Shown: positions 1,067 through 60,453 of the stretch, piece after piece
Layout of the letters: every line of letters starts with the position of its first letter
How positions within the stretch are numbered: position 1 is the stretch's first letter
Assembly (NCBI RefSeq): GCF_030013595.1
Contig: NZ_CP122768.1
Strand: one strand, 5' to 3'
Length of the DNA stretch: 64,000 nt
DNA from: Escherichia coli
GTDB taxonomy: Bacteria > Pseudomonadota > Gammaproteobacteria > Enterobacterales > Enterobacteriaceae
Translations under genes and position numbers: made by a program
Notes under the pieces: generated by a model
What the model saw: the letters and a program-made list of their open reading frames with translations, nothing else
Databases searched by the model: none
Told to the model about the DNA's origin: nothing

Positions 1067-1366
1067 ATGGCGCTTACAAAAGCTGAAATGTCAGAATATC
1101 TGTTTGATAAGCTTGGGCTTAGCAAGCGGGATGCCAAAGAACTGGTTGAACTGTTTTTCGAAGAGATCCGTCGCGCTCTGGAAAACGGCGAACAGGTGAA
1201 ACTCTCTGGTTTTGGTAACTTCGATCTGCGTGATAAGAATCAACGCCCGGGACGTAACCCGAAAACGGGCGAGGATATTCCCATTACAGCACGGCGCGTG
1301 GTGACCTTCAGACCCGGGCAGAAGTTAAAAAGCCGGGTCGAAAACGCTTCGCCCAAAGACGAGTAA
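1067..1366 (+). CDS. ihfA: integration host factor alpha subunit
   Basis: 99-aa ORF with HU/IHF-family sequence (GFGNF...RNPKTGE); 4 bp after pheT stop. Confidence 0.95.
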
Positions 1367-1383
1367 TCTGATCTAACTAAAAA

Positions 1384-1405
1384 GGCCGCTTTGCGGCCTT
1401 TTTTC
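1384..1405 (+). terminator. rho-independent terminator after ihfA
   Basis: GC stem ggccgc-tttg-gcggcc followed by T-run. Confidence 0.7.
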
Positions 1406-1466
1406 TTTTCACTGTCGAAGAGTCACCGTAAAATCAACGCCATGACACTTCAGCAGAACGGATACC

Positions 1467-25941: not shown

Positions 25942-26079
25942 CGTGTAATGGCTGCATGAAATAAACAATAAAATATAAATAACATTATCAGCCTGCTGAC
26001 GGCTTGAAGAGAGTCACAGTATCTTGTGCAACATTATTGGAAAGCGTGAGGGGCGAGGTAGCGAAGCGGAAAAATGTTA

Positions 26080-26184
26080 AAAAAAAGCCCATCGTGGGAG
26101 ATGGGCAAAGACTACACACAGCAATTCGTTGTTTCACTCAGGGGATTTCCATGCTTATAAATCAATATGTTGATTTATAACCGT
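26080..26184 (-). ncRNA. rprA: small regulatory RNA RprA
   Basis: Minus-strand sequence matches RprA as I remember it (ACGGTTATAAATCAACATATTGATTTATAAGCATGG...CCCATCTCCCACGATGGGCTTTTTTT), ending in a terminator hairpin and U-run. Confidence 0.85.
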
Positions 26185-31622: not shown

Positions 31623-31821
31623 TCCTGACTTAATGCTGCAATTTCGCCAAATCGACCTGGATTAACCTCCGTCCAGGTTCGATAACCTTCTTAATACTGC
31701 TTATCTAACCGCCTGATATTGTTCAAAAATAATACTAATCGCAGTTTGTGTTAAAACGACGGCTTAGCTTTATGAGATTATTCTTATCGCCCCTTCAAGA
31801 GCTAAGCCACTGAGAGTGCCG

Positions 31822-31889
31822 GAGATAAGCGCCGGATGGGGTAGAAACCCTTAAGCCTGTGTCGCACAGACTTAAGGGTTTTCTTATTT
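31822..31889 (+). ncRNA. candidate small RNA ending in a strong intrinsic terminator (possibly RydB)
   Basis: Hairpin cccttaagcctgtg-tcg-cacagacttaaggg plus U-run at 31848-31889, about 225 bp after ydiH; K-12 has RydB between ydiH and sufA; 5' end not determinable here. Confidence 0.35.
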
Positions 31890-49566: not shown

Positions 49567-49872
49567 TCAGGCGAGTTTTGCCTGATTGATTTGACTAAGT
49601 GGCTCATTGACATCGAAAACTTTGGCGACAACTTCCTCAACGCCGAGATTTTTCAGTCGGGCAGTATGTTTTTCCAGATAGGCAAGGGCGCTTTTTTCAT
49701 CAGTAAAAAGGTAGATCCCACCGGCTTCGTGGTTCTTTTCACTTTCTGTCCATACCTTCCACAGAAAACCAGGTTCCTGATTAATCGACTCAGCAAGCGG
49801 TTTAAGCTGCTCAGCCATTGCGTCGCCAAATGGGCCATTGAAAGAAAAATGAAGTTGTAACAAAGTTGCCAT
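49567..49872 (-). CDS. ydhR: small uncharacterised protein
   Basis: 101-aa ORF. Confidence 0.75.
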
Positions 49873-49980
49873 AGCGATTCTCCTTCTGATAACGCATACG
49901 AAGACAGTGTAAATCTTTTAACGTATTGGATACAGAGAAGAAACAGAGGGAAAAAAGGAGAAGACCAGATTAAGAAAATC

Positions 49981-50057
49981 TGGTGCGTCCGAGTGGACTC
50001 GAACCACCGACCCCCACCATGTCAAGGTGGTGCTCTAACCAACTGAGCTACGGACGC
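49981..50057 (-). tRNA. valW: tRNA-Val (anticodon GAC)
   Basis: Reverse complement reads GCGTCCGTAGCTCAGTTGGTTAGAGCACCACCTTGACATGGTGGGGGTCGGTGGTTCGAGTCCACTCGGACGCACCA; valV/valW naming is by position and uncertain. Confidence 0.9.
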
Positions 50058-50061
50058 AGGA

Positions 50062-50138
50062 TGGTGCGTTCAATTGGACTCGAACCAACGACCCCCACCA
50101 TGTCAAGGTGGTGCTCTAACCAACTGAGCTATGAACGC
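50062..50138 (-). tRNA. valV: tRNA-Val (anticodon GAC)
   Basis: Reverse complement reads GCGTTCATAGCTCAGTTGGTTAGAGCACCACCTTGACATGGTGGGGGTCGTTGGTTCGAGTCCAATTGAACGCACCA; 4-nt spacer from the other copy. Confidence 0.9.
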
Positions 50139-56775: not shown

Positions 56776-57708
56776 ATGTGGTCAGAATATTCACTCGAAG
56801 TTGTTGATGCGGTAGCGCGTAATGGTAGTTTTAGCGCTGCGGCACAGGAGTTGCATCGCGTTCCTTCTGCGGTCAGCTATACCGTGCGTCAGCTGGAAGA
56901 GTGGCTGGCGGTGCCGCTGTTTGAACGACGTCACCGTGATGTGGAACTGACCGCTGCCGGGGCGTGGTTTCTCAAAGAAGGGCGCTCTGTTGTCAAAAAA
57001 ATGCAGATCACCCGGCAGCAATGTCAGCAGATAGCGAATGGCTGGCGCGGTCAGTTAGCTATCGCAGTGGATAATATTGTCAGGCCAGAACGTACACGGC
57101 AGATGATCGTTGATTTTTATCGCCATTTTGATGATGTCGAACTTCTTGTCTTTCAGGAAGTGTTCAACGGTGTCTGGGATGCGCTTTCCGACGGGCGCGT
57201 GGAACTGGCGATTGGCGCAACACGCGCGATTCCGGTAGGCGGTCGTTATGCCTTCCGGGATATGGGGATGCTAAGCTGGAGTTGCGTTGTTGCCAGTCAC
57301 CACCCGCTGGCGTTGATGGATGGCCCGTTCAGCGATGATACGTTGCGCAACTGGCCGTCGTTGGTGCGCGAAGACACCTCGCGAACGCTACCTAAACGTA
57401 TTACCTGGTTGCTGGATAACCAAAAAAGACTTGTCGTGCCTGACTGGGAATCATCGGCAACCTGTATCTCGGCAGGATTATGCATAGGGATGGTGCCAAC
57501 ACATTTCGCCAAACCGTGGCTTAATGAGGGTAAGTGGGTAGCACTAGAACTGGAAAACCCCTTCCCGGATTCGGCATGTTGTCTGACATGGCAGCAAAAT
57601 GATATGTCGCCTGCGTTAACCTGGTTGCTTGAGTATCTCGGCGATAGTGAGACGCTGAATAAGGAGTGGCTGCGGGAGCCGGAAGAGACTCCCGCAACGG
57701 GTGATTAA
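56776..57708 (+). CDS. ydhB: LysR-family transcriptional regulator (YdhB/PunR)
   Basis: 310-aa ORF with N-terminal LysR HTH; divergent from ydhC. Confidence 0.85.
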
Positions 57709-58730
57709 CGACGATAGTCGCGGAACGGGCCGTCAGCCACGGAGCGGCGTTCAATCAACCGCGGATGCACTTCAATGGATTGCGGTTCTTCGCGTTTATT
57801 GACGATACGATCCAACAGCATGTTGAACGCCGTTTCGCCCAACGAATCTTTTGGCTGATGGATCGTGGTCAGCGCCGGCGTAAAATAGCGGGCGTTGCGC
57901 ACGTTATCATAACCGATCAGCGAAACATCCTGCGGCACGCGCAGACCCATTTCATCAGCAGCACAAAGTGCGCCCATTGCCATGATATCGCCACCACAGA
58001 AGACGGCAGTAGGGCGATGCGGTTGCGACAGTATTTGCTGCATGGCGCGATAACCGGATTCAGGTTCAAAATCACCCTGTACAATCCAGCTTTCCGGCAC
58101 CTTGATCATCGCTTCTTCCATCGCCTTCATAAAACCGGCAAGGCGGCCTGCGCCAGTGTTACGTTCCAGCGGGCCGGGGATAACGCCGATTTCGCGGTGA
58201 CCGCGTTCAATCAGATAACGCCCGGCCATGTAGCCGCCTTCGAACGCGTTATCAATGACCGCATCGGTGAAGTCAGCTTTTGCTTCACCCCAGTCCATCA
58301 CTACCATTGGGATATGGCGATACTCTTCCAGCATCGCCAGCAACGGCTCTGGGTACTCAGAACACATCACCAGCAGACCATCGACGCGTTTTTGCGCCAT
58401 CATCGACAGATAAGCCCGCTGTTTCTCAAGATTGTTCCACGCATTGCCCAGAATCAGGGTGTAACCTTTCTGGAAGCAATTTTTTTCAACCGCTTCAATG
58501 ATCTCGGCAAAATAGGCCGCTTCGCTGCTGGTCGCCAGCAAACCGATAGACTTGGTGTGGTTAACCTTCAGACTACGCGCCACCGCGCTAGGGGAGTAGT
58601 GTAATTCTTTGATCGCTGCCCACACGGCGTTGCGCGTTTCTTCAGCGACGAAACGTGTTTTGTTGATCACGTGTGACACGGTTGTAGTGGAAACGTTTGC
58701 TCGTTTCGCTACATCTTTTATTGTTGCCAT
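57705..58730 (-). CDS. purR: purine repressor (LacI family)
   Basis: 341-aa [27 protein letters not shown]... Confidence 0.95.
58687..58704 (-). promoter_or_regulatory. PurR-box-like operator within the purR 5' coding region
   Basis: ggAAACGTTTGCtcg matches the PurR half-palindrome AAACGTTTGC. Confidence 0.5.
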
Positions 58731-58774
58731 TCCATTTCACTCCAGACCCTAACTTCAGCTCCTGCAAAATCGCA

Positions 58775-58792
58775 AGGTAAACGTTTGCCTTT
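58775..58792 (-). promoter_or_regulatory. PurR-box-like operator in the purR leader
   Basis: aaggtAAACGTTTGCctt, palindromic match to PurR consensus. Confidence 0.55.
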
Positions 58793-59028
58793 ACACACCT
58801 TACGCACAACAAAAGTGTTGCGGTACGCCGGAAAAACGACACGGAGCGTCAGGAAGGGGTCAATGGCCAGTACGCAAATAGTGTAAGCGTGGAATTTTGG
58901 CCGATCTTGACGAAAAGGGGAAGTGGTAAAAACACTTATCATTATAAATGACGGGAGATTTTTTCATCACAGTGTGTAAAAATGCGTAATATCACTTTTT
59001 GTGTGGTAATAAAAAAGGAGAAAACTTG

Positions 59029-59118
59029 ATGAGCACCGACCTTAAATTTTCACTGGTAACAACGATTATCGTCCTCGGTTTGATCGTGGCCGTGGGTTTG
59101 ACTGCCGCGCTGCACTGA
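59029..59118 (+). CDS. ynhF: small hydrophobic membrane protein (29 aa)
   Basis: ATG preceded by aggag 8 nt upstream; encodes MSTDLKFSLVTTIIVLGLIVAVGLTAALH, a single TM helix; below the ORF-track length cutoff. Confidence 0.65.
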   Translation: MSTDLKFSLVTTIIVLGLIVAVGLTAALH

Positions 59119-59283
59119 TTTCCTCTCGAGGGAGCGCGTTCTCCCTCGCATCTCCTTCCTGTTTGTTAGCAAAATGGCAAAAGTGTTTTCTCTTTTTGTT
59201 ATTTTCATTTTTTTGTGATTGCTGTCATGCTTTCGCCACTTTAATGAATATCGCGTAATGACGCAAAGAGGTGGAGATAAGGC

Positions 59284-60453
59284 ATGAAAATTAACTATCC
59301 GTTGCTGGCGCTGGCGATTGGTGCGTTTGGTATTGGGACAACGGAGTTCTCGCCAATGGGCTTATTGCCCGTCATTGCGCGCGGTGTGGATGTCTCGATT
59401 CCCGCTGCCGGAATGTTAATCAGTGCCTATGCAGTTGGCGTAATGGTTGGCGCGCCGCTGATGACGCTTCTACTTTCTCATCGTGCTCGCCGCAGTGCGT
59501 TGATTTTCCTAATGGCGATTTTCACGCTCGGCAACGTACTTTCCGCCATCGCGCCGGATTATATGACCCTGATGCTTTCTCGCATTTTGACCAGCCTGAA
59601 TCACGGAGCATTTTTTGGTTTGGGTTCAGTCGTGGCCGCAAGCGTGGTGCCAAAACATAAACAGGCCAGCGCAGTTGCCACTATGTTTATGGGGTTAACC
59701 CTGGCAAATATCGGTGGCGTGCCGGCGGCGACCTGGTTGGGTGAAACCATCGGCTGGCGGATGTCATTTCTGGCAACGGCGGTGCTGGGAGTGATTTCAA
59801 TGGTAAGTCTGTTCTTCTCATTACCTAAAGGTGGTGCAGGGGCACGACCTGAAGTGAAAAAAGAGCTGGCGGTATTAATGCGTCCGCAGGTGCTGTCTGC
59901 ATTGCTGACGACGGTACTGGGAGCTGGTGCAATGTTTACCCTCTACACCTATATCTCTCCGGTACTGCAAAGTATTACCCACGCAACGCAGGTGTTCGTC
60001 ACAGCAATGCTGGTGCTGATTGGTGTCGGATTCTCTATCGGTAACTATCTCGGCGGCAAACTGGCAGATCGTTCAGTTAACGGCACGTTGAAAGGCTTTT
60101 TGTTGCTGCTGATGGTGATTATGCTGGCAATCCCGTTCCTGGCCCGCAATGAGTTCGGCGCAGCTATTAGCATGGTGGTGTGGGGCGCTGCAACCTTTGC
60201 GGTCGTACCGCCGTTACAGATGCGCGTGATGCGTGTCGCCAGTGAAGCGCCAGGTCTGTCTTCATCAGTCAATATTGGTGCCTTTAATCTTGGAAATGCG
60301 CTGGGAGCAGCTGCTGGTGGTGCGGTAATTTCCGCTGGGCTGGGATACAGCTTTGTGCCGGTGATGGGGGCGATTGTCGCGGGACTGGCATTATTGCTGG
60401 TGTTTATGTCAGCCAGAAAACAACCTGAGGCAGTTTGCGTTGCCAACAGCTAA
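59284..60453 (+). CDS. ydhP: MFS transporter
   Basis: 389-aa 12-TM ORF. Confidence 0.85.
   Translation: MKINYPLLALAIGAFGIGTTEFSPMGLLPVIARGVDVSIPAAGMLISAYAVGVMVGAPLMTLLLSHRARRSALIFLMAIFTLGNVLSAIAPDYMTLMLSRILTSLNHGAFFGLGSVVAASVVPKHKQASAVATMFMGLTLANIGGVPAATWLGETIGWRMSFLATAVLGVISMVSLFFSLPKGGAGARPEVKKELAVLMRPQVLSALLTTVLGAGAMFTLYTYISPVLQSITHATQVFVTAMLVLIGVGFSIGNYLGGKLADRSVNGTLKGFLLLLMVIMLAIPFLARNEFGAAISMVVWGAATFAVVPPLQMRVMRVASEAPGLSSSVNIGAFNLGNALGAAAGGAVISAGLGYSFVPVMGAIVAGLALLLVFMSARKQPEAVCVANS

Follow-up and report, generated by a model that had tools for sequence, protein, structure and literature searches.

CydX, AppX and CydS are accessory subunits of cytochrome bd oxidases that, like CydH, have fewer than 40 aa and a single transmembrane (TM) helix, were discovered late, retain the formyl-methionine and make hydrophobic contacts to CydA. 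CydX, a product of the cydABX operon, occurs widely and is needed for assembly or activity; on CydA it lies across from CydH, next to heme b558. In contrast, CydH is the product of an orphan gene, is confined to Enterobacterales-type long-Q-loop enzymes and binds beside heme b595, and no loss-of-function phenotype has been reported for it. CydH was recognised when E. coli cytochrome bd-I was found to contain an unexpected fourth single-helix subunit, which nanoLC-ESI-MS/MS identified as YnhF (Thesseling et al. 2019, PMC6853902). YnhF keeps its formyl-methionine, its gene lies between ydhP and purR and not in cydABX, and it was proposed to block an O2 channel toward heme b595 (PMC6853902). Production of YnhF at low oxygen is reported there second-hand, after Hemm et al. 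(PMC6853902). The identification of CydH in bd-I by mass spectrometry comes from two independent cryo-EM studies. CydH was placed in a cleft of CydA at TM1/TM9, stabilised by lipid, where it fills what in mycobacterial enzymes is a menaquinone-binding site (PMC8951039); its contact on CydA has also been given as helices 1 and 8 (PMC12994193). New high-resolution structures retain the CydA-CydB-CydX-CydH architecture. E. coli bd-II has no CydH, and the subunit was absent from the bd-II preparation (PMC8585947). A passage on CydH in PMC12529367 conflicts with the structural papers, which assign the subunit to bd-I and did not detect it in bd-II (PMC8585947); the passage is likely a slip in that proteomics paper.

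We analysed a small ORF in a stretch of 64,000 nucleotides of E. coli DNA (contig NZ_CP122768.1), hereafter called the window. The encoded peptide was identical at 29/29 positions (E 4.5e-13) to chain H of PDB entry 6RKO, E. coli cytochrome bd-I, where the chain is named 'Uncharacterized protein YnhF / Cytochrome bd-I ubiquinol oxidase CydH'. The identical peptide is present in 8 PDB entries and 12 chains, namely 6RKO and seven further bd-I entries. The NCBIfam equivalog NF033411, 'cytochrome bd-I oxidase subunit CydH', matched peptide residues 1-29 to profile positions 1-29 of 29 with 50.2 bits (cut-off 30, E 1.7e-13), and the Pfam family PF28012 'YnhF' is named in precomputed annotations of related loci. 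In essentially all of the 5,426 complete genomes of E. coli, RefSeq labels the gene 'cydH: cytochrome bd-I accessory subunit CydH'. Compared to the E. coli K-12 protein CydH/CydY/YnhF (UniProt A5A618; 6RKO_H; NF033411; PF28012), no difference was detectable: the sequence (29/29), the length, the Shine-Dalgarno (SD) sequence and the start codon are the same, as is the genomic place, which is separate from the cydABX operon and flanked by purR and ydhP. The window ORF is this very gene from a different E. coli strain, and the 553-bp intergenic region around it is 99.8% identical to that of many sequenced strains. These matches identify the ORF as cydH (b4602; formerly ynhF; alias cydY), an orphan gene that was already known and is probably monocistronic, and the structures establish the physical presence of its product in the complex. 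The first-pass annotation of the window, made from the sequence without database searches, had given the name ynhF, with which both 6RKO chain H and the RefSeq cydH label agree; its title had called the ORF unannotated, which was wrong since RefSeq already annotates it as cydH. Membership in the CydX/AppX family was considered and rejected, as the neighbours of cydH are purR and ydhP and cydAB is absent from the locus. The features of the locus are listed in Table 1.

Table 1. Features in and around the cydH locus, with further Rfam matches in the window (window coordinates).
Feature	Position	Strand	Detail
purR	57705-58730	-
Rfam RF02081 'STnc550', enterobacterial sRNA, match	58731..59121	+	396.1 bits, threshold 48
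PurR/GalR operator GGTAAACGTTTGCCT	58776-58790		in purR leader
Conserved non-coding block GTGGAATTTTG..ATCTTGA..AAAGGGGAAG	58889-58925
Predicted extended -10 promoter TGTGTAAAAAT	58973..58983	+	TRTGn plus hexamer keeping A2 and T6
Inferred 5' UTR, about 36-40 nt	58990..59028	+	holds SD and conserved CACTTTTTGTGTGG block
Site of IS1B insertion in strain YZLc1-3	59001-59009
Shine-Dalgarno AGGAG	59016..59020	+	spacer to cydH ATG of 8 nt
cydH (ynhF) CDS	59029..59118	+	29 codons plus TGA; start ATG 59029-59031, stop TGA 59116-59118; encodes MSTDLKFSLVTTIIVLGLIVAVGLTAALH
GC-rich hairpin CGAGGGAG-cgcgtt-CTCCCTCG	59127..59148	+	begins 9 nt past cydH stop; 59127-59134 paired with 59141-59148
Conserved block GTGATTGCTGTCATGCTTTCG with flanking T-runs	59190-59235		between cydH hairpin and ydhP
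ATGACA/GAAAAT promoter-scan site	59228-59201	-	within the preceding block
ydhP	59284-60453	+
Further Rfam matches	26077-26184 (-), 31789-31849 (+), 1308-1466 (+), 49984-50138 (-), 49856-50019 (+)

The cydH reading frame and its conservation

The cydH ORF lies in the 553-bp spacer between the divergent genes purR and ydhP, and the next genes outward are sodB and mepH. This intergenic placement, the length of 29 aa and an AGGAG located 8 nt before the ATG had all been described from the letters alone, and each agrees exactly with the sequence. Small ORFs are common by chance, with 78 short ORFs of at least 20 aa within 4.5 kb around cydH, and the rarity of the combination of features was therefore assessed. 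Among the 728 ORFs in the window that start with ATG and encode 15-50 aa, both strands counted, AGGAG was found 5-10 nt upstream of 2 and a TM-like 19-residue hydropathy window in 26. The two features occurred together in the cydH ORF only (1/728), where ~0.07 would be expected if they were independent. The best 19-residue Kyte-Doolittle window of CydH has a mean of 2.53, and the description of the peptide as a single-pass membrane microprotein stands, the 29-aa product being the one-helix subunit of bd-I. The peptide thus has the features of the NF033411 family, namely a length of about 29 aa, one TM helix and a polar N-terminus that is short. The initial observation of this ORF was thus real, and correct but ordinary.

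To follow the ORF across Enterobacteriaceae, 80 loci from about 25 genera were retrieved through the neighbouring PurR, so that conservation of the small ORF was not presupposed. A gap-free match of 29 codons was found in all 80, ~298 bp from purR, upstream of it and on the opposite strand. The ATG was present in 80/80, no internal stops occurred, every orthologue had exactly 29 aa, and codon 30 was a stop in each locus (TGA in 63, TAA in 17). In the 80 genomes, the spacing between the ATG and a purine-rich SD core was constant, with GGAG as the core in most and variants such as GGGG and GAGG in others. The first-pass annotation had named conservation of the ORF and its SD across Enterobacteriaceae as a check on coding, and both were kept in 80/80 genomes. 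A reading extended to 39 aa from a TTG was also considered; in-frame stops upstream, at differing distances, argue against it.

The substitution pattern, the other check that had been proposed, was likewise coding-like. Across 78 distinct nucleotide sequences, the entropies at codon positions 1, 2 and 3 were 0.47, 0.28 and 1.25. Nei-Gojobori counting in the cydH frame gave a pS of 0.61 and a pN of 0.135, that is, a raw pN/pS of 0.22 and a dN/dS of about 0.12 after Jukes-Cantor correction, compared to ratios of 1.3 and 1.5 in the two shifted frames. Eight residues (M1, L5, T11, T12, L16, I19, V20 and A26) were invariant in the 80 loci. The peptide is therefore under purifying selection. Its translation has been observed directly: top-down mass spectrometry detected the 29-aa protein intact, with 100% coverage and a formylated initiator (PMC12529367), in addition to the mass spectrometry of the cryo-EM studies.

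Transcript anatomy and the STnc550 entry

Upstream of cydH, the motif TGTGnAAAAAT was conserved to at least 90% in the alignment of loci from about 25 genera. In a tiling-array study that detected the ynhF transcript, a motif is reported at offset 55 of the 100-mer in front of it (PMC3009722). This offset would put the ynhF 5' end near 58993, ~100 nt after 58893 and 10 nt past the hexamer, and the cydH 5' UTR would therefore be only about 36-40 nt long. We infer that TGTGTAAAAAT is the extended -10 of cydH. A scan for sigma-70 -35/-10 pairs returned no canonical cydH promoter because a good -35 is lacking. Only about 100 bp appear to separate the divergent purR and cydH promoters, and the conserved non-coding block upstream of the cydH promoter probably belongs to that of purR. 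In the purR leader, GGTAAACGTTTGCCT is the PurR/GalR operator reported by ChIP-chip (PMC5110547). An FNR-box scan found no site upstream of cydH; its sole hit in the vicinity lies over the start codon, and the number of FNR-box matches across the window is at chance level. Literature searches for a tie between cydH/ynhF and ArcA or FNR found nothing.

Downstream of the stop codon, the E. coli sequence can form a hairpin with an 8-bp stem followed by a weak U-tract. A GC hairpin was present 10-17 nt past the stop in every genus examined, and stem sequence and loop differ between genera, suggesting that it is the fold and not the sequence that is conserved. When the 3' flanks were aligned with MAFFT and analysed with RNAalifold, no signal emerged because indels misalign the hairpins, which were consequently taken from single-sequence folds. 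The E. coli hairpin region was unexceptional against shuffled sequences (z = -1.45), and a terminator scan did not call the cydH hairpin because its T-run is poor. The hairpin is likely a terminator or a 3'-end stabiliser. Between it and ydhP lies a further conserved block containing GTGATTGCTGTCATGCTTTCG, presumably a ydhP promoter or regulator site; a promoter scan placed an ATGACA/GAAAAT site there on the minus strand.

The locus also falls within a match to the Rfam family RF02081, which covers model positions 1-388 of 388 and includes the whole cydH ORF. It might accordingly be read as primarily a regulatory sRNA (STnc550) or a dual-function RNA in which the conserved ORF is secondary. 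That the match is full-length, at 396 bits, and that cDNAs of the purR/sodB intergenic region were recovered in Salmonella Hfq co-immunoprecipitation (10 cDNAs compared to 6 in the control) speak for such an RNA, which we nevertheless consider very improbable. The STnc550 entry goes back to Table S3 of Sittka et al. 2008, where its coordinates are those of the whole purR/sodB intergenic region of Salmonella, the enrichment with Hfq is merely 1.7-fold and the Northern result is given as 'nd' (Sittka et al. 2008). By our reading, the Northern probe is antisense to the LGVIVA codons of the ORF.

The RF02081 consensus itself has no base pairs over its last ~85 nt, which are the cydH ORF, and shows wobble with a 3-nt period there. 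The STnc550 'sRNA' therefore corresponds to the cydH coding region plus the upstream spacer, including sequence antisense to the purR leader. The strong purifying selection on CydH at the protein level argues in the same direction. In its 5' part, the family coincides with the leader and operator of the divergent purR, which is encoded on the other strand. If, as it appears, cydH transcription begins near 58990, the initial ~260 nt of the model lie outside the cydH RNA and are conserved as purR leader and operator. RF02081 as a discrete, non-coding, structured transcript was thus rejected, the ORF being unpaired and evolving as codons and the Northern being 'nd'. RF02081 covers the same DNA as the cydH locus, with a protein-coding 3' quarter under purifying selection and 5' two-thirds that probably lie upstream of the cydH transcription start. 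It has the appearance of an mRNA and intergenic region wrongly typed as an sRNA, and the residual value of the comparison is that the entry appears to describe spacer and cydH CDS.

Elsewhere in the window, Rfam matches were found to RprA, rydB, STnc540, two tRNAs and 'HPnc0260 antisense RNA', all of which fit the part of the E. coli chromosome in which purR lies. The HPnc0260 match runs opposite to the tRNA region, on the other strand, and this family has probably produced it as an artefact derived from tRNA.

Neighbouring genes and other readings of the locus

A profile search of 1.84 billion proteins, in representative clusters at 50% identity (E <=0.001), was performed with a profile whose first row had 39 aa, the surplus columns being insert states. 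It returned 92 representative clusters, in which most full-length members had exactly 29 aa; named matches included 'YnhF family membrane protein' in Serratia, Pantoea and Plesiomonas. CydH homologues have been described as proteobacterial and as coinciding with long-Q-loop bd oxidases (PMC8951039), and the distribution in our search fits this restriction.

Within E. coli, the purR-ydhP intergenic region was found in 5,425 of the 5,426 complete genomes, at an identity of at least 99% in 4,949, and one genome gave no match to the spacer. In E. coli G749 (NZ_CP014488.1), only the last 66 bp of the 553-bp spacer match (12% coverage). The locus thus seems to be lost or rearranged in a few E. coli strains. 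An IS1B with the 9-bp target duplication TGTGTGGTA is present in two isolates from chicken, YZLc1-3 and EC17CM6; in YZLc1-3 (L082, NZ_CP123240.1) the element occupies positions 860-1680 of the locus. The insertion lies between the predicted cydH -10/TSS and the SD and so moves the gene ~0.77 kb from its native promoter. It may represent a natural CydH expression variant.

The gene ydhP follows cydH on the same strand in 76/78 informative Enterobacteriaceae loci. The first-pass annotation had suggested that small membrane proteins of this kind are often stress-induced regulators of transporters and had pointed to YdhP. MgtS-MgtA, AcrZ-AcrB and KdpF-KdpABC provide precedents, their small partners resembling CydH in size class, single TM helix, condition-dependent expression and binding to a larger membrane protein. 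The documented partner of CydH, unlike those of MgtS, AcrZ and KdpF, is a respiratory oxidase and not a transporter. A role for the peptide as such a regulator, most plausibly of YdhP and instead of or beside its role in the oxidase, could also appeal to the weak U-tract of the E. coli hairpin, with which some read-through into ydhP is conceivable, and to two-hybrid signals of the peptide with unrelated membrane-associated proteins. Of these signals, the hit with RNase E was ascribed by its authors to generic TMD contacts. The adjacency of cydH and ydhP carries little information because the whole purR-mepH neighbourhood is syntenic in Enterobacteriaceae, and the two genes are separated by a 165-bp spacer with conserved blocks of its own.

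Moreover, cydH is retained without ydhP in Salmonella enterica subsp. arizonae (L014), a Pluralibacter MAG (L052), Dickeya (L084) and the locus L083. The Dickeya locus keeps the divergent purR-cydH pair without ydhP or sodB, and in another genome cydH is adjoined by neither purR nor ydhP. The stable unit is the divergent purR-cydH pair, and the region downstream of cydH is variable. The gene sodB is missing from the cydH neighbourhood in eight Enterobacteriaceae loci, for example in Pseudescherichia, Franconibacter and Kosakonia cowanii. Structural and mass spectrometric evidence puts the peptide on CydA (6RKO; PMC6853902), and the literature searched contained no link between YdhP and CydH. 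The suggested transporter regulator is therefore unsupported, the peptide being a stoichiometric bd-I subunit whose gene persists without ydhP, and we regard this role as highly unlikely. Also unlikely is a second role of CydH, either as read-through that couples the MFS exporter gene ydhP to micro-aerobic respiration or as an extra partner of the transcript or peptide.

That the ORF is a chance open frame, or owes its conservation to a gene on the opposite strand such as the 52-aa antisense ORF at 59050-59208, is practically inconceivable: many short chance ORFs do surround cydH, and one antisense frame is stop-free over the 90 nt in 62/80 genomes with a pN/pS of 0.37, but that low ratio arises because the frame shares its wobble positions with the sense frame, and it has no ATG in 29/80 genomes and a stop-to-stop length of 5 to 136 codons and is therefore not a gene; the frame of the 52-aa ORF is interrupted by stops in 51/80 genomes, and the sense frame, with invariant ATG, SD and stop position, has the lowest pN/pS and a product directly detected by mass spectrometry and cryo-EM, which already refutes this explanation.

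CydH as a subunit of cytochrome bd-I

We are nearly certain of the overall account, in which the locus is cydH, with a predicted promoter of its own and a GC hairpin at its end, encoding the one-helix fourth subunit of bd-I that lies over heme b595. In the proposed sequence of events, a promoter located ~40 nt before the ATG would drive cydH, and the message, which is translated from the strong SD, would end at the GC hairpin right after the stop. The 29-residue product keeps its formyl-methionine and forms one TM helix. In the published cryo-EM and mass spectrometry of the identical K-12/BL21 protein, this helix is the fourth bd-I subunit and docks in the cleft of CydA (TM1 and TM8/9), with CydX on the other side. 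Once docked, CydH covers the membrane-facing access to heme b595, a site through which O2 enters the Geobacillus enzyme and which in mycobacteria is a menaquinone site. With this access covered, O2 would reach heme d only via a narrow channel starting in CydB.

Conservation along the helix is compatible with such docking. The conserved residues form a stripe, L5-L9-T12-L16-I19/V20-G23-A26, and the periodicity of conservation peaks at 100 degrees per residue, a peak that 841 of 20,000 shuffles (4.2%) reach. Judged from the sequences, the stripe is as would be expected of one-sided packing against a partner, with a modestly significant periodicity. Dual membrane orientation of a tagged CydH peptide has been reported, with reference to earlier work. 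The searchable literature contained no cydH deletion phenotype and no report of changed enzyme kinetics, so that a gating role of CydH, whether in blocking the channel or in selectivity, is deduced from structure. E. coli bd-II and the mycobacterial enzymes work without such a subunit, and CydH may therefore be dispensable.

The discovery value of the present observation is nil. The gene has reportedly been known since 2008, its product has been part of the bd-I structure since 2019, and it is annotated routinely. The observation is of value for calibration, in that a reader without tools caught a 90-nt gene through its SD, its ATG and the hydrophobicity of its product, and the pattern of 80/80 intact frames with a dN/dS of about 0.12 provides a true-positive signature for tiny ORFs. 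For the biology of the oxidase, a drug target, CydH is a possible determinant of gas selectivity, and it may tune the choice of bd-I between O2 and NO, CO or H2S.
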